NCBI GenBank assembly: GCA_030431525.1
Contig: JAUIJC010000027.1
Coordinates: 4,132 to 68,131, forward strand
Reading direction: 5' to 3'
Source of the DNA: Bacteroidia bacterium
GTDB lineage: Bacteria; Bacteroidota; Bacteroidia; Cytophagales; JAAEPT01
Length of the DNA stretch: 64,000 nt
A program made the position numbers and the translations under genes. Positions 44,739 to 63,243 of this stretch are shown here, in pieces. Position 1 is the first letter of the stretch. Each line of letters opens with the position of its first letter. The notes under the pieces are model-generated. The model searched no databases. It was not told the origin of the DNA and saw only the letters and a program-made list of their open reading frames with translations.

Positions 44739-44753
44739 ACCAAACCAATAAAA

Positions 44754-44798
44754 GAAGCACGCTGGAGCCCAACAAGGAGGCTTCAACGTGCTTTTTTT
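44754..44798 (+). terminator. Hairpin with a T7 run between the sugar porter and the porin gene
   Basis: agcacg...cgtgct with an inner ggagcc/ggcttc, then ttttttt directly followed by the porin ATG. Confidence 0.6.
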
Positions 44799-46238: not shown

Positions 46239-46239
46239 A

Positions 46240-46267
46240 CAGTTAGCAGTTAGCAGTTAGCAGTTAG
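46240..46267 (+). repeat. Four perfect tandem copies of CAGTTAG, starting the base after the next one following the porin TAG
   Basis: tag a CAGTTAG CAGTTAG CAGTTAG CAGTTAG caag. Confidence 0.9.
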
Positions 46268-46307
46268 CAAGATAAAATGGGGAGCATTCTAATCAATCAT
46301 TTTTAGG

Positions 46308-46410
46308 CAAAGGACTAAAGTCCTTTGCTATGAAGAACCGCCCTTACAGGGCTAAATTGTGGTAGCCCTGTAAGGGCGGTTCTTCATAGCGATGGATAAA
46401 AATCCATCGA
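46308..46410 (+). repeat. Composite palindromic element B-[gaagaaccGCCCTTACAGGGC-loop-GCCCTGTAAGGGCggttcttc]-C
   Basis: caaaggactaaagtcctttg / 21-bp stem / cgatggataaaaatccatcg. It lies between the convergent porin and menA 3' ends. Confidence 0.85.
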
Positions 46411-46463
46411 CACCCAAAAAAATCAACAACACCAAAACCCCATCTACTACCTCCCTCACCTGC

Positions 46464-46498
46464 GTTAACTGCTAACTGATACCTGTTAACTGAAAACC
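46464..46498 (+). repeat. Tandem heptamer array (GTTAACT/GCTAACT), the inverted partner of 46240-46267. It overlaps the menA stop codon.
   Basis: GTTAACT GCTAACT GATACCT GTTAACT GAAAACC. I count 24/28 positions complementary to the CAGTTAG array. Confidence 0.85.
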
Positions 46499-47382: not shown

Positions 47383-47393
47383 TTATCTATTGG

Positions 47394-47454
47394 AGTTCAT
47401 CATCCTCAGACCTGACTGGTTTTGGAAACCTGTCAGGTCTGAGGATGATGAACT
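47394..47454 (-). promoter_or_regulatory. Very stable hairpin (23-bp perfect stem plus a 5-bp extension) 12 nt upstream of the menA start codon
   Basis: agttcatcatcctcagacctgac (47394-47416) pairs with gtcaggtctgaggatgatgaact (47432-47454). The loop itself pairs ggttt/aaacc. Confidence 0.6.
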
Positions 47455-47466
47455 TTCTTTTATCCC

Positions 47467-47497
47467 ACAAAAAAAGCGTAGCCAAATGACTACGCTC
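47467..47497 (-). terminator. Intrinsic terminator after T9SS paralogue A
   Basis: agcgtag-ccaaatgac-ctacgct with a T-run on the minus strand. Confidence 0.7.
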
Positions 47498-47745
47498 CTA
47501 CAAAGATAAAACTTGTTCGCCTTAGTTCTTCAAGAACTTACGTGTGATGCGCTCTCCTTTCTCATTCGTCAGATGAACCACATAAAAACCATTAGCCAAA
47601 TCACTTATATTCAAAATAGCCTCATTGGAGATTTTTCCTTCTTGAAGGATTTCCCCGTTTAGGCTCATGAGCTGATAGCTTGATGGACCAAAGGATGCTT
47701 CAAGGGAGATGGTGAGTTGGCCTGAGGTTGGATTTGGATAGAGAG
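47468..47745 (-). repeat. ~280-bp duplicated module (T9SS sorting-domain coding, stop, terminator and CAAAGATA box), copy A
   Basis: It aligns with 48708-48985 with only scattered substitutions. The upstream coding parts of the two genes are much more diverged. Confidence 0.85.
47501..47508 (-). promoter_or_regulatory. Candidate -7 box (TATCTTTG) upstream of menA, inside the duplicated module
   Basis: The + strand reads ctaCAAAGATAa. It would place the 47394-47454 hairpin in the leader. Confidence 0.35.
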
Positions 47746-48685
47746 AAAGAAGTAGTGAAGACTCACCTTCTTCTACGCTAAGCGTATTTTCAATTTCTGA
47801 ATAGTATATGTAACTGACTCCATCGTTTTTCCATTCATCATTTTCAAATGAAAAAAACTGGACACTATCTATTTTATAAAAAAGAAAATTTTCGGGGTCT
47901 TGTTTATTGGGAAATCCAACAATTTCATAATCTGTATCTACATGATAAACAGTTTTACTCTCCTTCTCCCAAGAATCTGAATAACTCCAATTATACTCCT
48001 CCATTGATATCACACCACCTGCCACATCAAACTCATATACCACTCTTGACCTCCAATTTCGAACTTTCCATAAGGAATCTTCAGAACCTTTATCATATAC
48101 TATCTCCTCACTAAGGTTTCCATAAGTATCAAAATAATAATCCCTTCTCTCAGTACTTTCCCAGTCTGATTTGGTTGAATCATAAAATTCTTCGAATACC
48201 GATTCAAGTTGCCCATTATTTCCATATTGGTATCTGTACCTGTATCTAAATTTCCAATTGTCATTTTCTAATCTAAAATGATCTCTTGAAACCAAAAGCC
48301 CATCCTCTGAATAGTGTCTTATTTTATATGCTGCATAAAAATCGCCTTCCCTTGTAGTATCTGCTATGGATCTACCTAAGCTATCATAAGCAAATGACAT
48401 CCTAATTCCACTTGTTTCACTCCATTCCGAAGCATCATATTTTTCATTCCAGTAAACTAACCTATTCAGTGAATCATAGCTATAGTATAGCTTGTGGTCA
48501 ACTTCACCATCACTTTTTTTCCTAACAAGTGAATCAAGTTTGACTTCTGATTGAGCGATCCTACTTGCCTCAAGATACAAATAGTCCTTTCCTTCATTAC
48601 TGGATATATAATTCTGAAAATTAGATTGTCCCATTACCAATCCCATTAAAAGCATGGAAAGACAAATCAGTAAAGACTTTTTCAT
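47522..48685 (-). CDS. T9SS type-A cargo protein with YD-like repeats (paralogue A)
   Basis: After the signal peptide come repeated YxYDxxG/W-rich units (YYSYDSLNRLVYW, FAYDSLGRSI, YYFDTYGNLSEE). The C-terminal domain is LSLYPNPTSGQLTISLE...GFYVVHLTNEKGERITRKFLKN. Confidence 0.75.
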   Translation of the reverse strand: MKKSLLICLSMLLMGLVMGQSNFQNYISSNEGKDYLYLEASRIAQSEVKLDSLVRKKSDGEVDHKLYYSYDSLNRLVYWNEKYDASEWSETSGIRMSFAYDSLGRSIADTTREGDFYAAYKIRHYSEDGLLVSRDHFRLENDNWKFRYRYRYQYGNNGQLESVFEEFYDSTKSDWESTERRDYYFDTYGNLSEEIVYDKGSEDSLWKVRNWRSRVVYEFDVAGGVISMEEYNWSYSDSWEKESKTVYHVDTDYEIVGFPNKQDPENFLFYKIDSVQFFSFENDEWKNDGVSYIYYSEIENTLSVEEGESSLLLSLYPNPTSGQLTISLEASFGPSSYQLMSLNGEILQEGKISNEAILNISDLANGFYVVHLTNEKGERITRKFLKN

Positions 48686-48704
48686 AGTAGTGCTTCAGTT
48701 AAAA

Positions 48705-48733
48705 CAAAAAAGCGTAGCCAAATGACTACGCTC
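48705..48733 (-). terminator. Intrinsic terminator after T9SS paralogue B (identical to 47467-47497)
   Basis: Same sequence: aaaaaagcgtagccaaatgactacgct. Confidence 0.7.
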
Positions 48734-48985
48734 CTACAAAGATAAAACTTGTTCGTCTTAGTTCTTCAAGAACTTATGTGTGATGCGCTCTCCTTTCTCA
48801 TTCGTCAGGTGAACCACATAAAAACCGTTGGCCAGATCACTTACATTCAAATTGGCCTCATTGGAGATTTTTCCCTCTTGAAGGATTTCTCCATTTAGGC
48901 TCATGAGTTGATAGCTTGATGGACCGAAGGACTCTTCAAGGGAAATAGTGAGTTGGCTGGTGGTTGGATTTGGGAAAATTTCTAA
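48708..48985 (-). repeat. ~280-bp duplicated module, copy B
   Basis: See 47468-47745. Confidence 0.85.
48737..48744 (-). promoter_or_regulatory. Candidate -7 box (TATCTTTG) upstream of T9SS paralogue A
   Basis: It has the same sequence context as 47501 and lies 52 nt from the start at 48685. Confidence 0.4.
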
Positions 48986-49873
48986 GGATGAAACGATTGA
49001 ACCATCATTAGAAGTCACCTTCCCTTCTCCTCCTGAATAATAAAATAGAGCTTTCTCAATCTCTTCATTTGACTCTAATTCTAATATTTTACCTGGGATA
49101 GCATCATAGGGTGGAAAGAAATTGAAAATAGAAACTACCTCACTTGTTGGATCAACTACCAAACTAAAACTCTCTACAACCTCCCAAACTCCACTATTCC
49201 GTTCAAAGTAATTCATAGTCACCAACTCCCCATTCTGCTGATACTCAATACCAATCCTTGCATAGCTAATCTCAGACCAAGTAGAATCAATTGGATCAAA
49301 ATCATACTCTTTCTGTAAAGTCCTTCGACCTTGAGTATCAAAAACATGAACAATTTTATTGACAGATAACGAACTATCAATGACATCGAATTCCTGCTTG
49401 GTTATCACTAATGAATCATTCAACTTCTCATAATCAAATTCCACGAATTCAGTAAATACCCAACCATCAACACCATCCCATTCATACCGTTTTTCCTCAT
49501 ATAAATCTCCTTCCTGTGAATAACTATATTGACGAAACATATCGGGTGAACCATTACTACGATAGCTTGTATCGGCAATAGAAACTCCATCATCATCCAA
49601 TACGGTTATAGCCGAATCTCCATCCATAGTGAAATAAATAACTTTATTATCAACACTATAGCTACAACGAATGGAAAGGGTTTCTACACCACCATCTAAC
49701 AAAGTCACGGAATCCAACCGTTCGGAAGACATTGCAACTCGTTGGGCGGAAGAATTTCCTTTTGCCTTAAAACTTGGAGCAGGATTAAACTTTAATTCGG
49801 AACTAAAATTCGACTGACCAAAAACAAAAACACTGGCAAGAAGACCTGCCACTAACAGTAAAGACTTTTTCAT
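48758..49873 (-). CDS. T9SS type-A cargo protein (paralogue B of 47522-48685)
   Basis: The start was moved to ATG 49873 (MKKSLLLVAGLLASVFVFGQ). The C-terminal ~75 aa are nearly identical to paralogue A (EIFPNPTTSQLTISLE...HLTNEKGERITHKFLKN). Confidence 0.75.
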   Translation of the reverse strand: MKKSLLLVAGLLASVFVFGQSNFSSELKFNPAPSFKAKGNSSAQRVAMSSERLDSVTLLDGGVETLSIRCSYSVDNKVIYFTMDGDSAITVLDDDGVSIADTSYRSNGSPDMFRQYSYSQEGDLYEEKRYEWDGVDGWVFTEFVEFDYEKLNDSLVITKQEFDVIDSSLSVNKIVHVFDTQGRRTLQKEYDFDPIDSTWSEISYARIGIEYQQNGELVTMNYFERNSGVWEVVESFSLVVDPTSEVVSIFNFFPPYDAIPGKILELESNEEIEKALFYYSGGEGKVTSNDGSIVSSLEIFPNPTTSQLTISLEESFGPSSYQLMSLNGEILQEGKISNEANLNVSDLANGFYVVHLTNEKGERITHKFLKN

Positions 49874-49917
49874 GTGATTGAAAAACTGGTTAAGAATTAA
49901 AAACAAGAGTAAAGCAA

Positions 49918-49960
49918 ATAAAAAACGGTGAGAACTCCTTGGAGCGCTCACCGTTTTTTA
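49918..49960 (-). terminator. Intrinsic terminator after argS
   Basis: aaaaaacggtgag...ctcaccgtttttt, a 12-bp stem with flanking A- and T-runs. Confidence 0.8.
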
Positions 49961-49979
49961 ATGATTATTTAAGACTGAA

Positions 49980-51890
49980 TTACATCCGCTCTGGCACCTC
50001 AACTCCCAACATATTCATTGCCTTTTCAATGACTTTGGCCACAGCAGATGAAAGCGCCAAACGGAAGGCAATCACCTCTGGCTCTGCCTTGAATACTGGC
50101 AACTCCGCGTAGAAACGACTGAATACCCTTGATAAATCATAGGCATAGCTGGCCACTTCCGATGGTGCATAATTGCGACCAGCATCGGCTACAACTTTTG
50201 GGAAGTTTGACAGCGCAACAATCACATCACGCTCCTGCGCTTCCAAACCGTTGTAAGCAGAGAGGTCGATGTTTTCGAAAGCGACGCCATCTTCCTTGCC
50301 TTTTCTCAAAAGGGCTGAGATACGGGCGAAAGTGTACTGGATGGACGGTCCTGTATCCCCTTGGAAATCCACAGATTCCTCTGGGTTAAAGACCATGCGT
50401 TTTTTCGGGTCAACACGAAGGATGAAGTATTTCAAAGCACCAAGCGCCAACTGGTGGTAAAGCTTCTCGGCTTGCTCTTCAGTGAAACCGTCAATTTTAC
50501 CCAACTCGTCAGTGCGCTGTTTGGCAGTTTGAACCATTTCGTCCACCAAATCATCGGCATCAACCACGGTTCCCTCACGGGATTTCATACGGCCGTGTGG
50601 CAAATCCACCATGCCGTAGGACATGTGGTAAATTCCCTCAGCGTATGGACGCTCCAAGCGCTTCATGATGCGCTTGAGTACATCAAAGTGGTAATCCTGC
50701 TCGTTACCGACCACATAAATGGACTTGTCCAAAGTAAAGTCCTTGTACTTCAAGTCTGCCGTCCCCATATCTTGGGTCATGTACACGGAAGTACCATCGC
50801 CACGTTGAACCAACTTCTCGTCCAAGCCCTCATTGGTCAAATCGCACCAAACTGAGCCATCCTCCTTTTTATAGAAAGCACCTTTTTCAAGGCCTTCCAT
50901 CACCAAATCCTTACCCAAAAGGTAAGTGTCCGACTCGTAGTAATATTTATCGAAGCTAACGCCGATGCGCTTATAAGTGTCCTCAAAACCTGCATACACC
51001 CAGCCATTCATCTTTTTCCAAAGGTCATAAACGGCTGGCTCGCCTGCCTCCCATTTGCGAAGCAAGTCTTGAGCTTCCAAGAAAATTGGAGCTTCCTTCT
51101 CGGCACGGTTAAACAATTCCTTGATAGCGTTCAACTGCTCCCTTTCCTCGGCAGAAAGCTCGTTCTTCTTACCCTTCTTCTCGATTTCCTTCTTGCGAGC
51201 TTTGAGGTCTTCCACACTATCAAGTGCTGGATATTCGTTACGCTTTTCAACAATCAACTCCTCAATTTCGCTCTTGTATTCCTGATCGAAACGCACATAG
51301 AAATCACCCACCATGTGGTCGCCCTTTTTGCCGTATTCCTCAGGTGTTTTATTTCCACCAAAACGGAGGTAGGCAATCATGGACTTACAGATGTGGATAC
51401 CACGGTCATTAATCAAGTTAGCCATCACCACCTTGTAACCGTTGGCCTTCAATACCTGCGAAATGGAGTAACCCAAGAAGTTGTTCCTGAGGTGTCCCAA
51501 GTGCAAGGGCTTGTTGGTGTTTGGCGAGGAGTATTCCACCATCACCGTTTGGCCATTGGAAGGATGAGAACCGAACTGCTCGTCTTTCAAGATACTGTTG
51601 AATGTCTTCAACCAAACACTATCGGCAATCACGATGTTCAAAAAGCCTTTGACCACATTGTAGTCCTCCACCTCATCGACATTTTCCTTAAGGAAATCGC
51701 CGAGTTCCTGCGCCAATTCATCTGGACGTTTCTTCACTCTGCCAGCAAACTGGAAGGTGGTAAAGGTGAAACTACCCTCGAACTCCTTGCGGGTTTCCTG
51801 AAGAGCGACTTCCGCGGATGCGAGCTCAAATGAATATAAGGATGCGAAGGCTTTTGAAATTCCTTCTCTTATGGCGAGATCCAATGACAT
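49980..51890 (-). CDS. argS: Arginine--tRNA ligase
   Basis: The start was moved to ATG 51890 (MSLDLAIREGISKAF...). The track start at 52076 reads through a repeat element. It has the class-I motifs SSPNTNKPLHLGHLRN and HGRMKSREG (KMSKS-like). Confidence 0.95.
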   Translation of the reverse strand: MSLDLAIREGISKAFASLYSFELASAEVALQETRKEFEGSFTFTTFQFAGRVKKRPDELAQELGDFLKENVDEVEDYNVVKGFLNIVIADSVWLKTFNSILKDEQFGSHPSNGQTVMVEYSSPNTNKPLHLGHLRNNFLGYSISQVLKANGYKVVMANLINDRGIHICKSMIAYLRFGGNKTPEEYGKKGDHMVGDFYVRFDQEYKSEIEELIVEKRNEYPALDSVEDLKARKKEIEKKGKKNELSAEEREQLNAIKELFNRAEKEAPIFLEAQDLLRKWEAGEPAVYDLWKKMNGWVYAGFEDTYKRIGVSFDKYYYESDTYLLGKDLVMEGLEKGAFYKKEDGSVWCDLTNEGLDEKLVQRGDGTSVYMTQDMGTADLKYKDFTLDKSIYVVGNEQDYHFDVLKRIMKRLERPYAEGIYHMSYGMVDLPHGRMKSREGTVVDADDLVDEMVQTAKQRTDELGKIDGFTEEQAEKLYHQLALGALKYFILRVDPKKRMVFNPEESVDFQGDTGPSIQYTFARISALLRKGKEDGVAFENIDLSAYNGLEAQERDVIVALSNFPKVVADAGRNYAPSEVASYAYDLSRVFSRFYAELPVFKAEPEVIAFRLALSSAVAKVIEKAMNMLGVEVPERM

Positions 51891-51940
51891 GGGTAAAGCT
51901 TTTCGTTGTATTTTTGCGCATCTAAAATTTACGACGGTCG

Positions 51941-51948
51941 CAAAGATA
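51941..51948 (-). promoter_or_regulatory. Candidate -7 box (TATCTTTG) upstream of argS
   Basis: The + strand reads tcgCAAAGATAa. It lies 51 nt from ATG 51890. Confidence 0.4.
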
Positions 51949-51963
51949 AGCGAAAGAGAAATA

Positions 51964-52095
51964 ATAAGCGGAACCACCAAGACGCAGTTATTTTGGTCAG
52001 GGTTCGTGGTAACTTGATGCGGGGATAGCATAGCTATCGCAAAACAAATTGCTACGAACCATGACCAAAAGAACAAGTCAACTGGTTTTGGTTAT
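51964..52095 (-). repeat. 132-bp MITE-like long-hairpin element, copy 3 (inverted)
   Basis: The reverse complement aligns with copies 1 and 2. The stem sequence differs from copy 1 on both arms in a compensatory way. It starts 73 nt upstream of the argS ATG. Confidence 0.85.
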
Positions 52096-52124
52096 TGTTT
52101 TTCTTTCGGAAACCCTACATTGCC

Positions 52125-52222
52125 CCAAGTACCAAGTAAGGATTCAGTACAATGTATCACGTATCAGGTATAATGATTTCTCAGATGGACATCGTTGTAC
52201 ATAATACCTTGTACATAACAGG
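52125..52222. repeat. Period-7/14 arrays in the divergent argS-speA intergenic region
   Basis: CCAAGTA CCAAGTA ... TGTATCA CGTATCA GGTATAA on the left, and TTGTACATAATACC TTGTACATAACAGG on the right. Confidence 0.7.
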
Positions 52223-52228
52223 CTTCAA

Positions 52229-53617
52229 GTGACCAAGTACCTTGATTTCATTAAACAGCAGTTCTATTTCCCTAATGAGGCCTTCACCCTGAAGGACAAC
52301 GAACTGCACTTCAACGGTGTCCCATTGATGGACATCATTGAGCGCCACGGCACCCCGCTAAAACTTACCTACCTGCCTAAGATTGGTCAGCAGATCAACA
52401 AGGCCCGTGAGTTATTCAACAATGCCATTAAGGAGAAAGACTACCAAGGCAATTACATCTATTGTTATTGCACCAAGTCTTCGCATTTCCATTTCGTGGT
52501 GGAAGAGGCCCTGAAGCACAAAGTGCAACTGGAAACCTCCTCGGCCTATGATATGGCCATTGTAAAGAAGCTTTACGAGAAGGGAAAAATCGCCAAGGAT
52601 ATTACCGTGGTGTGCAACGGTTACAAACGTCCGCTTTACACGGAATACATCAGTAACCTGATCAACGAGGATTGGACGAACGTCATTCCTGTGCTGGACA
52701 ACCTCAACGAGATTGAGCATTACAGGGAAATGGTGACCAAGCCATGCCAAGTGGGTATGCGTTTGGCCGTGGACGAGGACCCGACCTTCGGATTCTACAC
52801 CTCTCGTTTGGGCATTCGCTACAAGGATGTGGTGGACCATTACAAGGAAAAAATTGAGAATGACGACCGCTTTACGCTCAAGCTTCTCCACTTCTTTGTA
52901 AACACGGGCATCCGCGACACACCGTATTATTGGAACGAATTCACACGCTTTATTGAAAAATACTGCGAGCTGAAGAAAATCTGCCCGACACTGGACACGA
53001 TTGACATCGGTGGTGGATTCCCGATCCAGACTTCCCTCCTCTTTGAGTTTGACTACCAAGAGGTGGTGAACTTGATGGTGGAAAACATCCAGCGCATTTG
53101 TGGGGACCACGGCGTGCCTACTCCGCACATTCTTTCGGAGTTCGGTTCCTTCACCGTTGGAGAGAGTGGCGCGGTGCTTTACAGTATCCTCGACCGCAAA
53201 CTCCAAAACGACAAGGAGCTTTGGTACATGATTGACGGCTCGTTCATCACGAACCTGCCTGACACTTGGGCCTTGAACCAGCGTTTCATTCTGTTGGCCA
53301 TCAACAACTGGAACAAGGAACTCCAAAAGGTGAACCTCGGGGGGCTGACCTGCGACTCCATGGATTATTATAACTCCGAGGCGCACCACGCTGAGATTTA
53401 CTTGCCAGCGAATACGGACAACCAGACCCAATACATCGGGTATTTCCACTGTGGCGCCTATCAGGAGTCAATTGGTGGATACGGTGGCATCCAGCACTGC
53501 TTGGTGCCAAGCCCGAAACACTTGGTGCTGGACCGCGACGAGGATGGAAACCTCACTGAATGGGTGTTCTCAGAAGAGCAAAAAGAAGAAGATGTAATCC
53601 GAATTTTAGGCTATTAA
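52229..53617 (+). CDS. speA: Arginine decarboxylase (short Bacteroidota-type, PLP fold-III)
   Basis: 462 aa with a GTG start. It shows the Orn/DAP/Arg decarboxylase pattern (YCTKSSHF..., IDIGGGFP, GGLTCDSMD..., CGAYQES). Confidence 0.8.
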   Translation: MTKYLDFIKQQFYFPNEAFTLKDNELHFNGVPLMDIIERHGTPLKLTYLPKIGQQINKARELFNNAIKEKDYQGNYIYCYCTKSSHFHFVVEEALKHKVQLETSSAYDMAIVKKLYEKGKIAKDITVVCNGYKRPLYTEYISNLINEDWTNVIPVLDNLNEIEHYREMVTKPCQVGMRLAVDEDPTFGFYTSRLGIRYKDVVDHYKEKIENDDRFTLKLLHFFVNTGIRDTPYYWNEFTRFIEKYCELKKICPTLDTIDIGGGFPIQTSLLFEFDYQEVVNLMVENIQRICGDHGVPTPHILSEFGSFTVGESGAVLYSILDRKLQNDKELWYMIDGSFITNLPDTWALNQRFILLAINNWNKELQKVNLGGLTCDSMDYYNSEAHHAEIYLPANTDNQTQYIGYFHCGAYQESIGGYGGIQHCLVPSPKHLVLDRDEDGNLTEWVFSEEQKEEDVIRILGY

Positions 53618-53818
53618 ATGTTTACATCTGCCCAGACTTCTTTATAACTGAACGAAAAGCTTAGAACTATTACGCCTGAACCAGCGTTGGTTACCTGAAT
53701 TACAAGCTCACAGGTTGATTTTATCTGCGTTATTGAACTTTTCTCCAAAAAAATTCAGACGCATTAAAAAAAACCTTACCTTGTAAAGGTCTGTACAGAA
53801 CAAAAATTTCTTGGAAAA

Positions 53819-53968
53819 ATGAAGAAACTAATCCTTTCCATGATGGCTGTTAGCTTTGGCATCGCCCTTAGCTCTTGTTACCGTCACACGACTTGCGCTA
53901 CTTACACCAAAGTAGACAAGAAGATTGAGATTCAAGAGAAGGGACTCGAACAAGACGAGAACCTCTAA
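53819..53968 (+). CDS. Small lipoprotein, 49 aa (paralogue 1 of 3)
   Basis: Found manually because it is below the track cutoff. The sequence is MKKLILSMMAVSFGIALSSCYRHTTCATYTKVDKKIEIQEKGLEQDENL*. It has a lipobox (L-S-S-C) and its own downstream hairpin with a T-run. Confidence 0.65.
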   Translation: MKKLILSMMAVSFGIALSSCYRHTTCATYTKVDKKIEIQEKGLEQDENL

Positions 53969-53992
53969 TAGCAGACTCATGACGTCATGTAA

Positions 53993-54021
53993 AGCACCTT
54001 CCGGCCGGAGGTGCTTTTTTT
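53993..54021 (+). terminator. Intrinsic terminator after small lipoprotein 1
   Basis: agcacct-tccggccgg-aggtgct followed by ttttttt. Confidence 0.8.
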
Positions 54022-54237
54022 GTGCCTATGGATTTTAGTCCTATCGGCCAATTCCATTCAGCTGATGAAATAAAATACAACGGATTGGAACTTTTTCTCC
54101 TCCCCACTTGTCTTAGACACTCATAAGACGTCCATAACCAACTGCCACACAATTAGGAATGATGAAATAAAATTTCACATTCCGAAAAAAAGCCGTATTT
54201 TAAAATTCATGGTATAGGACAATTAATTCTTTACAAA

Positions 54238-54387
54238 ATGAAAAAACTACTACTTTCCTTGATGGCCGTTAGTTTTGGCATTGCTCTAAGCTCCTGCTAC
54301 CGCGCGACAACCTGCTCGACCTACGTGAAGGCAGACCAAAAAATTGAAATGCAGAAAAAAGGCCTTGAGGAAAACAAGGACCTCTGA
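54238..54387 (+). CDS. Small lipoprotein, 49 aa (paralogue 2 of 3)
   Basis: MKKLLLSLMAVSFGIALSSCYRATTCSTYVKADQKIEMQKKGLEENKDL*. Nucleotide differences from copy 1 include many synonymous and conservative changes, which fits purifying selection. It has its own terminator. Confidence 0.65.
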   Translation: MKKLLLSLMAVSFGIALSSCYRATTCSTYVKADQKIEMQKKGLEENKDL

Positions 54388-54412
54388 TTCCATCCACCCC
54401 ATAAATTTTGAA

Positions 54413-54440
54413 GGCGCCCCATTCTGGAGGCGCTTTTTTT
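54413..54440 (+). terminator. Intrinsic terminator after small lipoprotein 2
   Basis: gcgcccca-ttc-tggaggcgc followed by ttttttt. Confidence 0.75.
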
Positions 54441-54588
54441 ATGCCCCAAAGGCAATTCCAAAAGCAGGAATAAACCTCATAAAAACAACCTAAGAACCTG
54501 AATTCAAGTTTTTTAACATATAAACCCGTTAGACCACAACGAAAAGGAGTACATTGGTCCGTACTCTTTTGAAAATCTTTTAGTAAAA

Positions 54589-54738
54589 ATGAAAAAGCTC
54601 CTTCTTTCAATGATGGCTATCAGCTTTGGCATTGCCATAAGCTCCTGCTCAAACCGCACCACTTGCAACACCTACGGAAAAGTGGACAAGAAAATCGAGA
54701 TGCAGAAAAAAGGTCTCGAACAAGACGAGAACCTCTAA
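54589..54738 (+). CDS. Small lipoprotein, 49 aa (paralogue 3 of 3)
   Basis: MKKLLLSMMAISFGIAISSCSNRTTCNTYGKVDKKIEMQKKGLEQDENL*. It is the same length as the others and keeps the lipobox, the TTC.TY core and the KGLE..(E/K)(N/D)L tail. Confidence 0.65.
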   Translation: MKKLLLSMMAISFGIAISSCSNRTTCNTYGKVDKKIEMQKKGLEQDENL

Positions 54739-54766
54739 AAAATAAAAACAACACTTCCCGCAAGTG

Positions 54767-54879
54767 TCGATGGATTCCCATCCATCGCTAAGAAGAACCG
54801 CCCTTACAGGGCTCTGCGGAATTATTACTGCAGAGCCCTGTAAGGGCGGTTCTCTTTAGCAAAGGACGCGAGTCCTTTG
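54767..54879 (-). repeat. Second copy of the B-A-A'-C composite element, in opposite orientation
   Basis: tcgatggattcccatccatcg / gaagaaccgcccttacagggc...gccctgtaagggcggttctc / caaaggacgcgagtcctttg. It lies between the convergent lipoprotein-3 and gmhB 3' ends. Confidence 0.85.
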
Positions 54880-54900
54880 GTTATTCAATTTTATATATAA

Positions 54901-55422
54901 TCAAACAGCCTCCGCCTTCTCCTCCACCAACTTCTCAGCCAAATCAATCAAGCCATCCACGCGAATATCCGCCTCTGGGCAAGTCTCCTCTGCAATCAGG
55001 CAAGTCTGCAAACCCAATTTCTTTCCGGGAATCAAATCACGTTGCTTGTCGCCCACCATCCACGATTGGCTGATGTCCACATTGTACTTAGCAATGGCGC
55101 GCTCCAACATCAAGGAATCTGGCTTCCTTGTCAAGGAATTCGTCCACTTCTCATGATAAGGAGCGATGTAAATGTCATCCAACGCATTGTCCGTATGCTT
55201 CTGCACATGGTCGTGCACCAACATCACATCCTCGGCCTTGAACGTGCCCTTCACAATCCCAGACTGATTGGTAATCACAATCAACAAATAGCCCGCCTCC
55301 TTCAACTTCCTTAAGGCCTCTGGTACACGATCCAAAAACTGGAACTTTTCAATGGTGTACACATAATCCACGTAGTCCTTATTGATGACCCCGTCACGGT
55401 CAAGAAAGATGCACTTGTTCAT
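54901..55422 (-). CDS. gmhB: HAD-IIIA phosphatase, D,D-heptose 1,7-bisphosphate phosphatase-like
   Basis: 173 aa with IFLDRDGVIN (DxDx motif), VITNQSGI and MVGDKQRDL. Confidence 0.7.
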   Translation of the reverse strand: MNKCIFLDRDGVINKDYVDYVYTIEKFQFLDRVPEALRKLKEAGYLLIVITNQSGIVKGTFKAEDVMLVHDHVQKHTDNALDDIYIAPYHEKWTNSLTRKPDSLMLERAIAKYNVDISQSWMVGDKQRDLIPGKKLGLQTCLIAEETCPEADIRVDGLIDLAEKLVEEKAEAV

Positions 55423-55569
55423 CGCTGTTCAAGAATGTTTTTTGGAACTGTCCGACAGTCAAACACCACAGACCCCACAAAGTTCTGCTTTCCTGCACTT
55501 AACACCAAAAACTTACCCGTTTGTTTCTGTTGTGTTATCATTTCTGAAACTCCAGTCTGAACCCTCTGG

Positions 55570-55843
55570 CTGTCATCCTGAGCGTTAGCGAAGGAACTGA
55601 CTAAAAACTCTTCTCTTTCAGATGCTTCATTCCTCAGCATGACAGTGCGTTGTTTAACCCCCTATTGCCAGCCATAGGGGCAGACCTGTGTGTCTGCCCA
55701 AACTCTGGGGCAACCCCACCTCTGTCCTCCCCTTATCTAAGGGGAGGAAAAACCACCATCCTACAGCCTGACAACTATAATTGGCAAATATTCTCTGTAA
55801 CATTCTCCTCCCCTTGGATAAGGGGAGGACAGAGGTGGGGTTG
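55570..55843. repeat. Cluster of unrelated palindromic repeats in the gmhB/hemY divergent intergenic region
   Basis: It contains ctgtcatcctgag...cctcagcatgacag (55570-55645), gggcagac-ctgtgt-gtctgccc (55678-55699), and two inverted copies of a ~35-bp unit ccccacctctg+tcctcccctt-N4-aaggggagga (55714-55748 and 55806-55840). Confidence 0.8.
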
Positions 55844-55897
55844 AATCCTCAGTCTTTAGGCAATAGCATAAATACCCAAAAATCCTCCCCACCTCAC

Positions 55898-55905
55898 TAT
55901 CTTTG
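55898..55905 (+). promoter_or_regulatory. Candidate -7 box TATCTTTG upstream of hemY
   Basis: Exact consensus match, 25 nt before ATG 55930. Confidence 0.45.
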
Positions 55906-55929
55906 ACAAAAGGGAAAACAACGGGAACA

Positions 55930-57246
55930 ATGAGCGCGCAACACACCTCCATCGCCATCATCGGCGCAGGCATCTCAGGCCTAAGCCTCGCCTACGAGCT
56001 TCAAAAAAAGAACATTCCTTACATGCTTTTCGAGAGCTCCGATCGTGTGGGTGGCTACATCCAAACCCAAACCATGGACGGTTGCATATTGGAGGAAGGC
56101 CCCAACTCCCTGCTTTGCGACCAAACCATGAACGCCTTTTTGGAGGAATTGGGACTTACCGAAGACATCATCGAAGCCTCAACAGTCGCCAATGACCGCT
56201 TCATCATCAAAAACGGGAAGCTCGCAAAAGTACCCGCCCATCCCGCAAAGCTCCTATTTGGAAATTTCCTCAGCTGGAAAACCAAATGGAAAATCATTCG
56301 CGAGCTGTTCAGCAAGCCACAAAGCCCTTCTGAAAACGAAACCCTCAGTGCCTTTTTCACCCGTCATTTTGGCCAAGAAGTCACCGACTACCTTGTCCGT
56401 CCATTTGTGGGAGGCATTTACGCCGGCAACCCCGACGAACTGCTCACTTCATTGAGCTTCCCCAAATTATTGGAAATGGAAGCCCAGTACGGCTCCATTC
56501 TAAAAGGCTTCGCCAAAAACAAAAGCTTGGAGCGCAGGCGCACCATCTACCTCAAAAACGGATTGCACAGCCTGCCACAGCGCATGGCCGACAAACTGGA
56601 GCACCTCCAGCTGAACTGCCCCATCCAAAAAATCACCAAGGAGGAAAACGGCTATGCGCTTGAAACAGCCGAGGGCACATTCCATTGCGAAAAAGTCGTG
56701 TTGGCCACTCCAGCCAGCACCACGGCAAAACTCCTCCCCGAGGCCTTGGAAAGCCTAAGCAGGACCTTGGAAAGCATCCCCAACCCGCCGATGGTCATTG
56801 TCCATAACCTGTACAAAGCCTCAGCGGAAACCGAAGCCCTCCAAGGCTTTGGCGCCCTGTTCCCACCCATCGAAAAACGCTTCGCCTCCGGCACCATTTG
56901 GGCCAGCTCCGTATTCTCAGGGAAATGCCCCGACGACAAATTCCTGCTAACAAGTTTTGTGGGAGGTCGCGCCAATGAAGAAAAAGCGCTACTTTCGGAA
57001 GCCGAAATCTCCGAGCGGGTGAGCAAGGAAAACTCCGAGCTCTTGGGACTTCCCGCCCCCGAAAAACAAATCCTCTTCACCTACAAGCAAACCATCCCTC
57101 AGTACACGAAGGAGGCAAAACTTGCGCAAGAAAATTTGAAAACCTTGGAGAAGGAAGGCATCTTTATCTGCTCAAACTGGAAGGGAGGCATCTCCGTTCC
57201 AGATTGTATTGCCAAGGGAAGAGCGTTGGCCAATAGCTTTTTATAG
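55930..57246 (+). CDS. hemY: Protoporphyrinogen oxidase (oxygen-dependent, FAD)
   Basis: The start was moved to ATG 55930 (MSAQHTSIAIIGAGISGLSLAYEL, a dinucleotide fold). It has HemY-like length and a C-terminal GGISVPDCI motif. A TATCTTTG -7 box lies 25 bp upstream. Confidence 0.8.
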   Translation: MSAQHTSIAIIGAGISGLSLAYELQKKNIPYMLFESSDRVGGYIQTQTMDGCILEEGPNSLLCDQTMNAFLEELGLTEDIIEASTVANDRFIIKNGKLAKVPAHPAKLLFGNFLSWKTKWKIIRELFSKPQSPSENETLSAFFTRHFGQEVTDYLVRPFVGGIYAGNPDELLTSLSFPKLLEMEAQYGSILKGFAKNKSLERRRTIYLKNGLHSLPQRMADKLEHLQLNCPIQKITKEENGYALETAEGTFHCEKVVLATPASTTAKLLPEALESLSRTLESIPNPPMVIVHNLYKASAETEALQGFGALFPPIEKRFASGTIWASSVFSGKCPDDKFLLTSFVGGRANEEKALLSEAEISERVSKENSELLGLPAPEKQILFTYKQTIPQYTKEAKLAQENLKTLEKEGIFICSNWKGGISVPDCIAKGRALANSFL

Positions 57247-57375
57247 TTCATGGTTGATAGATCATAGGTCATGGTTACAGCCCGCAACTATAAGCCATAA
57301 CGACAAAAATGTTTTTAGTTCATCCTTGAAACCACGGCTCGAACCATGAACCATCAACGATGAACCATGAACCCC
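57247..57375. repeat. Inverted pair of tandem heptamer arrays (unit GAACCAT / ATGGTTC)
   Basis: The left arm (57247-57274) is TTCATGG TTGATAG ATCATAG GTCATGG. The right arm (57341-57375) is GAACCAT GAACCAT CAACGAT GAACCAT GAACCCC. I count 22/28 complementary positions. Confidence 0.9.
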
Positions 57376-57380
57376 ATAAA

Positions 57381-58112
57381 ATGAACAACTGCCTTGTAAT
57401 CATACCGACCTACAACGAGAAGGAAAATGCGGAGCGCATCATCAGAAAAACCTTGTCGGTCGATGCCCATTTGCATATTCTCATCGTAGATGACGGGTCG
57501 CCAGACGGTACGGCTGATATCGTCAAAGCCCTACAGGCAGAATTCCCAGAGCGCCTTTTCCTGATTGAGCGAAGCGGAAAACTCGGGCTCGGAACGGCCT
57601 ACATCACCGGCTTCAAGTATGGCCTGAAAAACGGCTACGACTACATCATCGAGATGGACGCCGACTTTTCCCACAACCCCGAGGACCTGCCAAAGCTCTA
57701 CAACGCCTGTAAAAACGGCGCCGATGTGGCTGTTGGCTCACGCTATAAGGATGGCGTAAACGTCATCAACTGGCCAATGAACCGCGTGCTGATGTCCTTC
57801 TTCGCCAGCCAATACGTGCAGTTCATCACCTCCATGCCCATCAACGACGCCACCGCCGGCTTCGTCTGCTACACCAGAAAGGTATTGGAGTCACTCAACC
57901 TCGACAAAATCCGCTTTGTCGGCTACGCCTTCCAGATCGAGATGAAATTCAAATCTTGGAAAAAGGGCTTCGACGTGCAGGAGGTTCCCATCATTTTCAC
58001 AGACCGCACCGAGGGCGTTTCCAAAATGGATGTGAAAATCTTTAAGGAGGCTTTCTTTGGGGTGATTTATATGAAGATTCGGAGTTTGTTTAAGAGTCCT
58101 TCGAAGTATTGA
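57381..58112 (+). CDS. GT2 polyprenol-phosphate mannosyltransferase (Dpm1/Ppm1-like)
   Basis: MNNCLVIIPTYNEKEN...ILIVDDGSPDGT...IEMDADFSHNPEDL. I prefer the start at 57381, because the listed 57360 start lies inside a heptamer array. Confidence 0.9.
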   Translation: MNNCLVIIPTYNEKENAERIIRKTLSVDAHLHILIVDDGSPDGTADIVKALQAEFPERLFLIERSGKLGLGTAYITGFKYGLKNGYDYIIEMDADFSHNPEDLPKLYNACKNGADVAVGSRYKDGVNVINWPMNRVLMSFFASQYVQFITSMPINDATAGFVCYTRKVLESLNLDKIRFVGYAFQIEMKFKSWKKGFDVQEVPIIFTDRTEGVSKMDVKIFKEAFFGVIYMKIRSLFKSPSKY

Positions 58113-58146
58113 TTATTGCAACAATACCTTTACTTGAAACATCAAT

Positions 58147-61100
58147 ATGAAAAATCAAATTATGAACATTCTAAAAAACCTGACTTTCATTCTCCTAACA
58201 TTTAGTGTTAATCTGTCATATGCTCAATACATTCAATTTGAGCATGTACCTCCATTACAGCCATCTCCATTAAAAATCCCTGTATTTGAAGGAGTATATT
58301 CATCTTCAATAGCCTTTGCTGATATAGATGGTGATAACGATCAAGATGTTTTGATAACTGGATACAATCCTTACACAGATCAAAACATTGCGAAACTTTA
58401 CAAAAATGATGGATTGGGAGAATATTCTGAAATAGAAGAGACTCCTTTTGAGGGAGTTTTTGTCTCATCTATCGCATTTGCTGATATAGACGGAGATAAT
58501 GATCAAGACGTTCTGATAACTGGAGCAACTGGAAGTAATGATTCAGAACATATTGGGAAATTATATTCGAATGATGGATCAGGAAATTTTACTGAAATTA
58601 AAAACACTCCCTTTGAGGGAGTTTATTCCTCATCAATTGCCTTTGCTGATATAGATGGTGATAACGACCAAGATGTTCTAATTACAGGAGAAAAATCTTC
58701 AAAAGAAATCGGTTATAGAAAACGAATTACCAAACTTTATAGTAACGATGGCAAGGGAAACTATACTGAAGTTCAAAACACTCCTTTTGAAGGGGTTGCT
58801 GGCTCATCCATTGCTTTTGCTGATATAGATGGTGATAACGACCAAGATGTTCTAATTACAGGGCAAAATATCACAGGAGATAATATTGCTCAACTTTTCA
58901 GAAATAATGGAAGTGGAGACTTCTCCCTTCAGAGTAACACTCCTTTTGAAGGGGTTGCTGGCTCATCGATTGCCTTTGCTGATATAGATGGTGATAACGA
59001 CCAAGATGTTTTAATTACAGGGCTTTTTAACGCATACAGATACAACGCAAAAATTTACATCAACGATGGAACTGGGAATTATTCCCTAAAAAATGACAAT
59101 TTTTTTGAAGGTGTTCACTTTTCATCCATTGCCTTTGCTGATATAGATGGTGATAACGACCAAGATGTTCTAATTACAGGAGCTACCAAGTCAGGCGAAC
59201 GAACTTCAAAGCTCTATACCAATGATGGAACGGGCAATTTTTCCCTTGTCAGTAACACTCCCTTTGATGGCGTTGAAAAAGGATCTATTGGCTTTGCAGA
59301 TATAGATGGTGATAACGACCAAGATGTCCTAATCACGGGATATTTAGGAAAGGATGGTTCAGTTCCAGGGATTGCTCGACTTTACATTAACAATGGAATT
59401 GGTGATTATAATCTGGTGAAAGAGACTCCATTTGAAGGTACAGAAGGGGCTTCTTTTGTTTTTGCAGATATAGATGGAGATAACGACCAAGATGTATTAG
59501 TTGCAGGATTAAATTATTCGAATAAGCGGGCAACGAAACTTTATACAAACGATGGTGATGGTCACTATAATGAAGTAATAGGGACTCCTTTTGATGGAGT
59601 ATCTGGATCAATTGCTTTTGCTGATATAGATGGAGACAATGATCAGGATGTTTTAATAACTGGATTTTTGGGATATGGCGGTTCAGTTCGAGGCATTGCG
59701 AAACTTTACACCAATGATGGAACAGGTAATTTCACCATAGTAAATGGAACTCCTTTTGAGGGAGTTGCTGGGTCATCAATTGCTTTTGCTGATATCGATG
59801 GGGACAACGACCAAGATGTTTTAATCACGGGAATTAATAATTCAAATCAACGCATTGCAAAACTTTACATCAACGATGGCACTGGCACCTTTACTCTTAA
59901 AAACAACACTCCTTTTGACGGGGTAGTTGATTCATCAATTGGTTTTGCTGACATAGATGGAGATAATGATCAAGATGTTTTAATAACAGGATTTAATAAT
60001 TCATGGAAACGCACAGCAAAACTGTACACCAATGATGGAATTGGCAATTTTTCCCTTGTTAGTAACACTCCATTTGAAGGAGTTTTTTATTCATCAATTG
60101 CCTTTGCTGATATAGATGGAGACAATGACCAGGATGTTTTAATAACTGGCCAAAATGAATTAAAAGAAGAAATTGCAAATCTATACTCCAACGATGGAAC
60201 TGGTAAATACACCCTAATAAACAACACTCCTTTTGAAGAGCTTAATCTTTCATCTGTCACTTTTTCAGATATAGATAGAGATAACGACCAGGATGTTTTA
60301 ATTACGGGCTATAACCTTTCAGATCAGAGATTCTCAGGACTTTACCTCAATGATGGAAGTGGGAATTATTCCTTATTTAGGAACTCACCTTTTGATGAGT
60401 TTCCTTTTTCATCGATTGCTCTAACAGATATTGATGGAGACATGGATCAAGACATATTAATTACAGGACAAATTAGTTCACAAGTCATTTCAAGGGTTTA
60501 TAGAAACACACCTTGCTTCCCTTCTATACCATTACCAGATTTAGCTCTTTTATCAGCTATCAGTGGAGAATGTTCTGTAAATGCACCAACTGCCCCAACC
60601 GCTAATAATGGTTGTGGCATTACTATTACAGCCACAACTAATGCTACATTTCCTATCACCATTCAAGATACTACAACAATCACTTGGACTTATGATGATG
60701 GCAATGGAAATATTAACACACAAGACCAAGAGGTAATAGTTAACGATATAGTTAACCCCGTTCCAAATGTAGCTTCCTTGCCAACAATAATAAGTAAAGA
60801 AGTAGTTACACATCTAGAGCCACCCACTGCCATAGATAATTGCACTGGGACAATTACTGCAACTACCGATGCAACTTTCCCTATAACCACACAAGGGACT
60901 ACAACAGTCACTTGGAATTACAATGACGGAAATGGTAATGTATTCTCCCAAAATCAAGATGTAGTTATTGAAGGAATAACTGGTGAAATTAAAGAACAAA
61001 ATATAGGAATAACCACATACCCTAACCCAACAAATAAAAGTATTATCATTTCCTTTGAACAAGAGGAAAATGAAATTGAACTAGTACTGACCACTATTAA

Positions 61101-61236
61101 CGGTCAAGAGATTTACAAAGAACATTACAACTCTCTATCAAACACAGAAATACCTATTAATGGAGAAAGAGGTATTTATTTCTTGTTCATTAAAAGTGAT
61201 CAAGGTCAACGTATCGTGAAAATATTAAAGAACTAG
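58147..61236 (+). CDS. T9SS cargo: 14 FG-GAP/VCBS-type repeats, two HYR-like Ig domains and a type-A sorting domain
   Basis: After the signal peptide there are 14 copies of ...TPFEGV..SSIAFADIDGDNDQDVLITG...KLY.NDG.GN.... Two units then read C....AP.A.(N/D).C(G/T).IT.TT.ATFPIT.Q.TTT(I/V)TW.Y.DGNGN. The C-terminal domain is ITTYPNPTNKSIIISFE...GIYFLFIKSDQGQRIVKILKN. Confidence 0.85.
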   Translation: MKNQIMNILKNLTFILLTFSVNLSYAQYIQFEHVPPLQPSPLKIPVFEGVYSSSIAFADIDGDNDQDVLITGYNPYTDQNIAKLYKNDGLGEYSEIEETPFEGVFVSSIAFADIDGDNDQDVLITGATGSNDSEHIGKLYSNDGSGNFTEIKNTPFEGVYSSSIAFADIDGDNDQDVLITGEKSSKEIGYRKRITKLYSNDGKGNYTEVQNTPFEGVAGSSIAFADIDGDNDQDVLITGQNITGDNIAQLFRNNGSGDFSLQSNTPFEGVAGSSIAFADIDGDNDQDVLITGLFNAYRYNAKIYINDGTGNYSLKNDNFFEGVHFSSIAFADIDGDNDQDVLITGATKSGERTSKLYTNDGTGNFSLVSNTPFDGVEKGSIGFADIDGDNDQDVLITGYLGKDGSVPGIARLYINNGIGDYNLVKETPFEGTEGASFVFADIDGDNDQDVLVAGLNYSNKRATKLYTNDGDGHYNEVIGTPFDGVSGSIAFADIDGDNDQDVLITGFLGYGGSVRGIAKLYTNDGTGNFTIVNGTPFEGVAGSSIAFADIDGDNDQDVLITGINNSNQRIAKLYINDGTGTFTLKNNTPFDGVVDSSIGFADIDGDNDQDVLITGFNNSWKRTAKLYTNDGIGNFSLVSNTPFEGVFYSSIAFADIDGDNDQDVLITGQNELKEEIANLYSNDGTGKYTLINNTPFEELNLSSVTFSDIDRDNDQDVLITGYNLSDQRFSGLYLNDGSGNYSLFRNSPFDEFPFSSIALTDIDGDMDQDILITGQISSQVISRVYRNTPCFPSIPLPDLALLSAISGECSVNAPTAPTANNGCGITITATTNATFPITIQDTTTITWTYDDGNGNINTQDQEVIVNDIVNPVPNVASLPTIISKEVVTHLEPPTAIDNCTGTITATTDATFPITTQGTTTVTWNYNDGNGNVFSQNQDVVIEGITGEIKEQNIGITTYPNPTNKSIIISFEQEENEIELVLTTINGQEIYKEHYNSLSNTEIPINGERGIYFLFIKSDQGQRIVKILKN

Positions 61237-63052: not shown

Positions 63053-63077
63053 TAGTTAGGTCTGAATAATGGACTGC

Positions 63078-63203
63078 GTAGCGACGCTTTGAAAGCGTCG
63101 ACACTAATTTGCCTTTGGCAAATTACATTCACCCTATCACCATATAATCAGTTTTCAATCCGACTTCGTCGTATTGGTTTCGACGCTTTCAAAGCGTCGC
63201 TAC
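63078..63203. repeat. Inverted pair of self-palindromic 24-mers (gtagcgacgctttgaaagcgtcga) flanking a spacer with an aatttgcc/ggcaaatt hairpin
   Basis: 63078-63101 and 63180-63203 are reverse complements. The inner hairpin is at 63106-63124. Confidence 0.85.
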
Positions 63204-63243
63204 ACAGCCAGTAGTTTGGCCAATTGAATTGAAAAAATTGCTT

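Follow-up and report, generated by a model that had tools for sequence, protein, structure and literature searches.

In the 64-kb stretch of Bacteroidota DNA analysed here (the window), the spacer between hemY, which encodes a member of the protoporphyrinogen oxidase family, and a downstream GT2 gene of the polyprenol monophosphomannose synthase family holds two arrays of tandem heptamers that face each other across a loop (locus H, Table 1). An earlier reading made from the letters alone (the sequence-only reading) had given the sequences and coordinates of these arrays, their complementarity at 22 of 28 positions in register and the 5-nt gap to the GT2 start codon, and all of these were reproduced. 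The left arm begins at the first base past the hemY TAG, and the complementarity can be extended to 29 of 37 positions (78%), with 57246–57282 set against 57336–57372. The two arms differ in composition: the G+T fraction is 0.64 for the left one and 0.26 for the right. When the right arm was examined with Tandem Repeats Finder (TRF), a period of 7 with 4.7 copies was returned for 57341–57373; this arm also carries TGA as well as ATG triplets, and the ATG at 57360 is in frame. The degenerate third copy in the loop, GTTTTTAGTTCATCCTTGA (57311–57329), lies in direct orientation relative to the left arm and is a possible alternative partner of 57354–57372 (79% over 19 nt).

Both gene boundaries are well founded. 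A syntenic Cytophagales metagenome-assembled genome (MAG), L086, encodes a homologue of the hemY product, and the C-terminus of the latter aligns right up to the end of that homologue; the hemY stop is therefore native. The GT2 product of 243 residues is the same as that of an independent gene call and aligns over 100% of its length with homologues of 243–246 residues, which supports the start at 57381.

The RNA of the spacer, which the sequence-only reading had thought able to fold, is predicted to do so better than chance, since it beats 200 out of 200 dinucleotide shuffles on both strands (z −4.6 for plus and −4.0 for minus). The base of the predicted stem takes in the hemY stop region together with GT2 bases −1 to −8. 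No family of Rfam 15 reaches its gathering score at locus H, and a permissive Rfam search of 57150–57480 returned chance-level matches only (E of at least 5).

Related arrays in the window and in other genomes

A self-match scan of the window showed that 7 is its only strong short period. With at least 16 of 21 self-matches, period 7 was found at 44 positions and every other period from 3 to 13 at 0–1 each, the harmonic 14 excepted; with at least 14 of 21, intergenic DNA holds the centres of 120 of the 126 period-7 positions, although only 11.7% of the window counts as intergenic on a map of the longest open reading frames (ORFs). The arrays sit in eight spacers (A–H), about one spacer in five, and mostly form inverted pairs, as had been claimed (6 of 8); locus B has roughly one opposing unit only, and at locus E no opposing arm was found. 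The recurrence at other gene boundaries is real, but it amounts to seven other spacers and not to the 'eight or more' first counted. The at least four further unit sequences also shrink, because GATACTT and CTTGCTA belong to one family, so that four families exist in total when TTCATGG (H) is counted, the others being AAGTATC/AAGTAGC (A, C, G), TAACTGN (E, F) and TTAGANN (B, D). The close abutment on stop and start codons held up well: nine of about 14 arm edges lie 0–8 nt from such a codon, and the stops of the LamB-like, UbiA-like and lpdA-like genes even fall inside arrays. All eight array spacers are located in the second half of the window (27800–57400), and the roughly 13 spacers before 27.8 kb have zero heptamer arrays, though several carry other hairpins.

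Locus A fills the 93-nt spacer from the lpdA-like stop (27960–27962, minus strand) to the fabG-like start (27866), with a fold z of −6.8 (the z-scores of A, F and G are from mononucleotide shuffles). Locus B is 18 nt from the stop of the upstream minus-strand ORF, and locus C lies between the stop of an AlaRS C-terminal fragment (38174) and the gatB start (about 38072). Locus F overlaps the stops of the convergent LamB-like and UbiA-like genes and has 27-nt arms (89%) and a fold z of −17; between its arms is a palindrome of a different kind, with a match to Acido-Lenti-1 at 46308–46353. Locus G is placed between the divergent argS and decarboxylase genes, with CCAAGTA CCAAGTA just upstream at 52122, and its fold is not significant (z −0.9). 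No unit in the window has the run of three G expected of a G-quadruplex.

Copies within one unit family have more in common than the unit. Loci A and C share a GTCATGATAC junction and can be aligned over about 100 nt, locus E and the right arm of locus F share CCTGYGTTAACTGCT, and locus B and the left arm of locus D share the flank TTTGGGYTAAYCTCTAA. Since these junctions and flanks go beyond the repeat unit, the window copies within a unit family look like dispersed homologous copies. This goes against the earlier proposal of a generating mechanism or selected structure 'rather than a single mobile element', as does the unit order of locus H, which is common to 90 stretches.

Table 1. Positions of the hemY–GT2 element and of the other heptamer arrays in the window
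Feature	Position	Strand	Description
hemY stop TAG	57244–57246	+	ORF 55903–57246; native protein end
Left (5′) arm	57247–57274		TTCATGG TTGATAG ATCATAG GTCATGG; G+T-rich; complementarity reaches 57246–57282
Loop/spacer between arms	57283–57335		contains degenerate third copy GTTTTTAGTTCATCCTTGA (57311–57329)
Right (3′) arm	57341–57375		GAACCAT GAACCAT CAACGAT GAACCAT GAACCCC; A+C-rich
GT2 start codon ATG	57381–57383	+	5 nt past right arm
Locus A	27875–27965		inverted pair AAGTATC/GATACTT; arms 27875–27909 and 27931–27965; 35-nt arms, 80%
Locus B	29467–29503		single TTAGACC-type array; partial opposing unit 29511–29519
Locus C	38100–38167		inverted pair, AAGTAGC/AAGTATC family
Locus D	40812–40905		inverted pair NNNTTAG/CTAANNN; flanked by divergent alaS and M23-peptidase genes
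Locus E	42250–42278	+	forward TAACTGN array, 5 nt before ATG (42284) of PALP/cysK-like gene
Locus F	46235–46497		inverted pair CAGTTAG x5 (46235–46269) and CTAACTG-type x4.5 (46466–46497)
Locus G	52144–52222		weak inverted pair, GTATCAN/TACNTTG type; 17-nt arms, 82%

Outside the window, the left arm of locus H matches an element of Mucilaginibacter lappiensis ATCC BAA-1855 (NZ_FTMG01000020.1; L094, positions 333–420) in the order of its variant units, GTTCATGG-TT(G/C)ATAG-AT(C/A)ATAG-(G/T)TCAT. The M. lappiensis element spans from just past a stop codon to just before an ATG, with a fold z of −3.7; the GCTTTTTAG and CATAAAATG flanks that it seems to have in common with locus H are not general in the family. 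A scan for GTTCATGGTTNATAGATNATAGNTCAT returned 90 stretches, all of them from Bacteroidota and with the unit order GTTCATGG-TTNATAG-ATNATAG-NTCAT, a set that includes orthologues, so that its counts are not independent. Most are from Mucilaginibacter, including complete genomes and cultured isolates, and the rest from Chitinophagaceae and MAGs. A partner arm (at least 18 of 25 positions) is present within 140 nt in 66 of 89 copies, and the loop has a median length of 35 nt. About 77% of the spacer is taken up by the pair; over 64 copies, stop-facing arm edges lie a median of 5 nt from the stop, 41 of 47 being within 12 nt, and the median distance of start-facing edges from the start codon is 16 nt. 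The flanking genes are co-directional in 31 cases, divergent in 19 and convergent in 8. When orthologous Mucilaginibacter loci were compared (3–7 genomes per group), arms and unit number were constant, without any 7-nt insertion or deletion (indel), and loops had diverged or been replaced, varying in both sequence and length. The suggestion that slippage of the arrays alters leader length or reading frames is thus not supported by these loci. The GTTCATGG-TTNATAG-ATNATAG family is one for which we found no earlier description in a limited literature search. In several orthologous Mucilaginibacter groups (L385/L391/L396/L429/L431 and L377/L403), the right arm is followed directly by TATCTTTG, which fits the Bacteroidota −7 promoter motif TAnnTTTG, and an ATG comes about 10–30 nt downstream; judged by this motif, some family copies likely lie immediately upstream of a promoter.

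The nearest genomes that could be reached have only about 73–75% GT2 identity. Among them, L086 keeps the order UbiA - argS - decarboxylase - ... - hemY - GT2, and its hemY–GT2 spacer is 36 nt long and without arrays. No real period-7 arrays were found in L086–L090, where L087–L090 gave borderline 14/21 A/T-rich stretches only. That locus H is missing from the orthologous spacers of the nearest relatives suggests that it was acquired in this lineage and is not an ancient regulatory site of the operon. Two metagenome scans with exact flanks brought up no strain variants of this organism, and look-ups with exact proteins gave nothing but Logan contigs of a single run, which are identical to the window.

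The TTCATGG unit is not confined to Bacteroidota. Three tandem copies of it were found in more than 120 stretches of GTDB species genomes, against about 0.3 by chance, and their hosts include filamentous cyanobacteria, Bacteroidota, Gammaproteobacteria, Acidobacteriota and Planctomycetota. In 47 of 120 stretches, the unit also forms an opposing array within 400 nt. In IMG/VR, TTCATGG x3 gave 26 stretches, as compared with 3, 13 and 1 for three shuffled units, and contigs classed as viral (L213–L332) gave more than 120 stretches for TAACTGN x3. Several of these contigs hold multiple inverted pairs (for example, IMGVR_UViG_2265129009_000001); if they are true phages rather than misclassified host DNA, they would offer a possible route for the cross-phylum spread that MacGregor (2015) found puzzling. 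The paired geometry is also seen with other units at GatB loci from Chloroflexota, Acidimicrobiia, Moraniibacteriota and Micavibrio.

A generic detector applied to loci L006–L332 and the window, covering many phyla, gave 72 adjacent inverted pairs, a convenience sample with related copies whose figures describe a strong tendency and not a calibrated probability. Their arm edges lie a median of −1 nt from the adjacent stop, 42 of 61 being within 10 nt. The G+T-richer arm is the 5′ one in 50 pairs and the 3′ one in 8 (27 vs 5 by unit family), and the G–C skew is higher in the 5′ arm in 54 pairs, higher in the 3′ arm in 2 and equal in 16. Convergent genes show this polarity 9 to 0 and divergent genes 5 to 0. 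Since it holds between convergent genes, start-codon context is ruled out as its cause. Of the window's own pairs, H, D, F and G obey this polarity, A shows no bias and C goes against it. We did not find the rule stated in a limited search of the literature, and such a near-universal G-richer 5′ arm raises the question of how the pairs arise. A distinct type was noted in MAGs of Nostocaceae and other cyanobacteria (L102, L105, L154, L159, L165, L205, L210), where (GTTAATG)n abuts (CCATGAA)n almost without a loop and the TAATAGCCATG junction is conserved.

Origin and role of the element

We see about an even chance that the hemY–GT2 spacer holds one copy of a dispersed, REP-like hairpin element with heptamers as its building blocks, in which each arm would comprise about four degenerate units, roughly 29 bp, around a freely varying loop. 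The 7-nt units may have arisen while each family was young, through duplication of the slippage type, the copies now being spread by some copy mechanism and kept by concerted evolution or mild selection. A transcript that crosses the element would fold into a stem of about 30 bp, and this stem could act as an intercistronic insulator that protects or processes the 3′ end of the upstream mRNA and masks the bases before the downstream start. At locus H, ribosomes that terminate on hemY would then open the base of the stem.

Several observations weigh against this dispersed-hairpin reading. Neither a mobilising enzyme (in the window) nor a target-site duplication or a conserved terminus beyond the arms was found; the latter two were sought in the flanks of the 90 family copies and of 53 TTCATGG pairs. 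Empty sites were too diverged to align, and the copy mechanism is therefore pure inference. The genome evidence comes from 64 kb only. The 90-copy set was picked by a left-arm pattern, so that the conservation of the left arm is partly a selection effect. As regards an RNA role of the element, sense and antisense folds are equally stable: among 29 co-directional pairs, the sense strand folds better in 15 and the antisense strand in 14 (p = 0.53). The mirror order of unit variants is only weakly above unit-shuffled controls (mean z 0.67, 51 of 70 positive). At four variable arm positions of the Bacteroidota family, Watson–Crick pairing is at or below independence with one exception (37 pairings observed vs 28.6 expected). 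Finally, the Nostocaceae arms differ at one position in every unit (GTTAATG vs CCATGAA), and their hairpin would bear a regular A–G mismatch, a systematic difference that favours sequence recognition over pairing. Taken together, the null sense bias, the weak mirror order, the little covariation and the Nostocaceae mismatch indicate that complementarity comes mainly from the shared unit consensus. The absence of a sense bias and the near-absent covariation argue against a classical structured RNA; these tests do not exclude a role of the stem and give it no positive support.

Some of the same data bear on the idea that the spacer is an RNA structure selected for the operon, whose stem couples GT2 to hemY translation or serves as a processing or stabilising site of the RNase III type. 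The stem base covers both the hemY stop region and the bases before GT2, the arms end 0 and 5 nt from these codons, stems of 28–37 bp are long enough for a nuclease specific to double-stranded RNA (as generally known for RNase III), the Mucilaginibacter orthologues have kept their arms while the loops diverged, and equal hypotheses were put forward for cyanobacterial STRR hairpins (PMC2670836). We nevertheless hold it to be rather unlikely, in view of the unfavoured sense strand, the near lack of compensatory change, the missing functional link between hemY and GT2 and the empty orthologous spacer of the nearest relative. Elements of this kind also have divergent genes (19 of 58) or convergent ones (8 of 58) on their two sides, so the pairing of stop with start, which the sequence-only reading had put forward and which fits three co-directional spacers, cannot be their general role. 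An unlikely explanation is that the arrays are protein-binding sites (iterons) in DNA or RNA, read by a nucleoid protein, a global regulator or an RNA-binding protein such as S1, Csp or CsrA, with the inverted layout allowing dimeric or bidirectional binding. It would account for the apparent conservation of sequence rather than pairing, including the variant-unit order kept across genera, the little covariation between arms and the non-complementary Nostocaceae position, as well as for the recurrence of TAACTGA and TTCATGG across phyla above shuffled units (in IMG/VR, 26 stretches for TTCATGG x3 vs 3, 13 and 1). Binding of this sort has been proposed for IHF/HU or a global regulator (PMC2700814) and for an RNA-binding protein (PMC4679880). 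The difficulty lies in the number of unrelated units, at least four within 30 kb and dozens across genomes, which would need many proteins or a sequence-blind reader; binding is purely putative here, and the window has no candidate gene with a link to the arrays.

Plain microsatellites, that is, neutral arrays made by replication slippage that prefers steps of 7 nt, with lengths that could vary between cells, would pair only because slippage had hit both arms of pre-existing hairpins. A period of 7 regardless of sequence in many phyla agrees with this explanation, as do the 7-nt indels between Cyanothece strains (PMC4679880) and the polymerase-footprint idea of Mrazek 2007, as quoted second-hand; moreover, the left arm of locus F is perfect and its right arm degenerate, which means that arms can homogenise independently. 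It is quite improbable all the same, given the constant unit number at orthologous Mucilaginibacter loci, the one variant-unit order common to 90 copies across genera, the non-repeat junctions and flanks shared by window copies and a polarity (54 vs 2 pairs) that simple local slippage does not predict. A labile microsatellite or contingency (phase-variation) locus was rejected because of the constant unit number and the lack of 7-nt indels at the orthologous Mucilaginibacter loci. It is very improbable that a Rho-independent terminator separates hemY from GT2. A stable hairpin does stand directly past the stop codon, and locus F lies between convergent genes, but the stems are imperfect and rich in A/T, members of the family are often found between divergent genes, and no heptamer arm in the window has a T-run after it. 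Heptamer arms are also absent from a terminator-like scan of 40000–58500, the right arm of H being followed by CCCCATAAAATG, whereas canonical terminators (GC stem plus T-run) exist elsewhere in the window; with no T-run, a canonical intrinsic terminator was rejected. An assembly or sequencing artefact, which the sequence-only reading had named as a way in which it could fail and to which the breaks of short-read unitigs within two of the arrays might point, has a negligible chance. An independent Logan contig (run ERR3420974) reproduces the whole hemY–GT2 spacer base for base, others of that run agree with arrays A and F up to contig break points, and dozens of isolate genomes, some of them complete, carry homologous elements, with near-identical arms in cultured Mucilaginibacter. 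As independent contigs reproduce the arrays, they are not an artefact of this assembly, and this candidate was rejected.

A broader and speculative proposal, which we think has a low probability of being right, is that paired heptamer arrays over many phyla form one class of element, pointing to a common directional process or machinery. Its rules would be about four units per arm, arms a few bases from stops and a near-absolute polarity on both strands, such that the G-rich strands run 5′ to 3′ toward the centre, as in a head-to-head fusion of telomere-like tracts. If this were true, reiterative 3′-end synthesis at breaks or stalled forks followed by joining would be one option; another would be a shared module, a nuclease or a processing one, with stems of about 30 bp as its target. 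The hemY–GT2 hairpin would be a footprint of that process, and the recurrence of TAACTGA and TTCATGG in cyanobacteria, Bacteroidota, Gammaproteobacteria and viral-classed contigs would reflect horizontal spread.

For annotation, spacers of this kind should not be read as terminators or phase-variation loci. The presence of a conserved family in many cultured Mucilaginibacter strains makes the question open to experiment.

Other features of the window

The window is chromosomal Bacteroidota DNA with housekeeping genes and proteins with sorting domains of the type IX secretion system (T9SS), and no mobile-element genes were found in it. Its GatB is 62% identical to that of a Cyclobacteriaceae MAG and its GT2 73–75% identical to Cytophagales proteins. 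About half of the window spacers fold at z −4 or lower, most of them without 7-nt periodicity; intergenic palindromes of several kinds are unusually abundant in this genome. Long non-periodic hairpins, with arms of 29–41 nt and 83–97% complementarity, were noted in the spacers 6641–6729, 47394–47454, 55711–55843, 63074–63207 and 51987–52074. A second dispersed palindrome with the core GAACCGCCCTTACAGGGC occurs at 10545–10589, 10679–10724, 46308–46353 (inverted partner to 46396) and 54772–54875, with a partial copy at about 42140–42170. It scores 38–40 bits against the Rfam gathering score of 37 for the Acido-Lenti-1 RNA motif, and one copy lies in the loop of the locus F heptamer pair, as though inserted there.

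The alaS gene (38174–40795, minus strand) has a single in-frame TAG at about 38555–38557 (…KLTKQG*VFQKEQ…), past which the C-terminal DHHA1 part goes on in the same frame. Readthrough at this codon, a gene that is truly split and an error of sequencing are all possible; TAG is an ordinary stop at hemY and at the LamB-like gene. The longest argS ORF (49980–52076, minus strand) encodes 698 residues, 67–105 more than its homologues (593–631 residues), and its N-terminal domain begins at residue 69, so that the true start is probably near 51890. With that start, the argS–decarboxylase spacer would be about 340 nt long and include the further hairpin at 51987–52074. A very large ORF (1–5931, minus strand) that runs off the window start contains 234-nt tandem repeats at 2990–3514, and an ORF of 1029 residues (58147–61236, plus strand) contains 159–165-nt tandem repeats with a DGDNDQD-like motif (58285–60308); both sets of repeats are protein-coding and not related to the heptamer arrays.

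Comparison with known systems

The REP/BIME and REPIN sequences of Proteobacteria are short, dispersed, imperfect intergenic palindromes, often near stops and variable between relatives; their heads are GTAG or CGTC, a RAYT transposase goes with them, and they are thought to stabilise mRNA or to act as insulators. Unlike the heptamer elements described here, REPs have no internal 7-nt periodicity, and neither such heads nor a RAYT (Y1 transposase) gene was seen within the 64-kb window. Locus H consists of head-to-tail heptamers, as in a heptameric member of the long simple sequence repeats (units of 5–11 nt) in the sense of Mrazek 2007; the length instability of such repeats is not seen, there being no 7-nt indels at the orthologous Mucilaginibacter loci. 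[quoted passage not shown]

Tandem heptamer arrays were first reported in cyanobacteria around 1990, and the named STRR1–3 units are CCCCAGT, TTGGTCA and CAACAGT. The likeness to STRR sequences drawn by the sequence-only reading is apt: the arrays here are likewise tandem 7-bp units, dispersed and intergenic (eight spacers in 64 kb, 120 of 126 positions), capable of forming hairpins between co-directional genes and without an assigned function. They differ in host, which is of Bacteroidota, in their units (TTCATGG, AAGTATC, TAACTGN and TTAGANN) and, for the Bacteroidota family, in having units whose number is fixed at about four and whose variants come in a fixed order. Filamentous cyanobacteria, too, commonly have TTCATGG arrays and pairs. 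STRR hairpins of 7-bp units lie between hupS and hupL in several cyanobacteria and upstream of hoxW, and have been proposed to stabilise transcripts or to couple translation (Devine et al. 2009, PMC2670836).

Direct repeats of TAACTGA a few bases before start codons are known from Beggiatoaceae, cyanobacteria and five Bacteroidetes, some of these genomes having other heptamers in the same spacers (MacGregor 2015, PMC4679880). Start-abutting heptamer arrays had thus already been described in Bacteroidetes, which takes away one part of the novelty claimed for the present locus. Loci E and F bear TAACTGN units, and locus E, with its forward array 5 nt before a start codon, is like 'Maribeggiatoa' and Flexibacter litoralis. 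The spread of TAACTGA over cyanobacteria, Gammaproteobacteria and Bacteroidetes resembles that of TTCATGG. Locus H differs in its unit (GAACCAT/TTCATGG) and in being paired, TAACTGA being almost only a direct repeat with one indirect repeat in BOGUAY (PMC4679880).

Paired heptamer arrays near ORF ends, which the sequence-only reading had believed to be new, are also in print (PMC4692102, PMC2700814, PMC2670836), as are this type of element, its geometry and the ideas on what it may do. Geobacter metallireducens has eight pairs of five tandem heptamers (MTYCTGA) on opposite strands at variable distance, for example between proB and proA, which are absent from a sister species and were read as binding sites of IHF/HU or a global regulator (Aklujkar et al. 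2009, PMC2700814); its units are others, and classes of period 8 and 9 exist there too. In Xanthomonas, GGGAATC arrays form 70–75 convergent inverted pairs per genome, and 89–93% of the arrays are intergenic (Rehm et al. 2015, PMC4692102). They lie a mean of 28 nt from the upstream ORF, most often have four units and adjoin housekeeping genes; whether a site carries a pair or a single array is kept between species, and no function was found (PMC4692102). As at locus H, which is an inverted pair by the same definition, arrays of one unit lie close together on opposite strands, and the convergent G-rich orientation in Xanthomonas would agree with the polarity seen here if the G-rich version comes first, an order that the paper does not give. 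In contrast to the window units, those of Xanthomonas can form G-quadruplexes, and the phyla differ. A preference for four units in arrays without G-tracts suggests that this preference is not about quadruplexes and argues against a quadruplex role, a point that we did not find noted before in a limited literature search. The hemY–GT2 element is of the same kind as the cyanobacterial STRR hairpins, the GGGAATC pairs of Xanthomonas and the paired heptamers of Geobacter, resembles REP elements in its behaviour, and adds a new host lineage within Bacteroidota to a known, still unexplained type of element.

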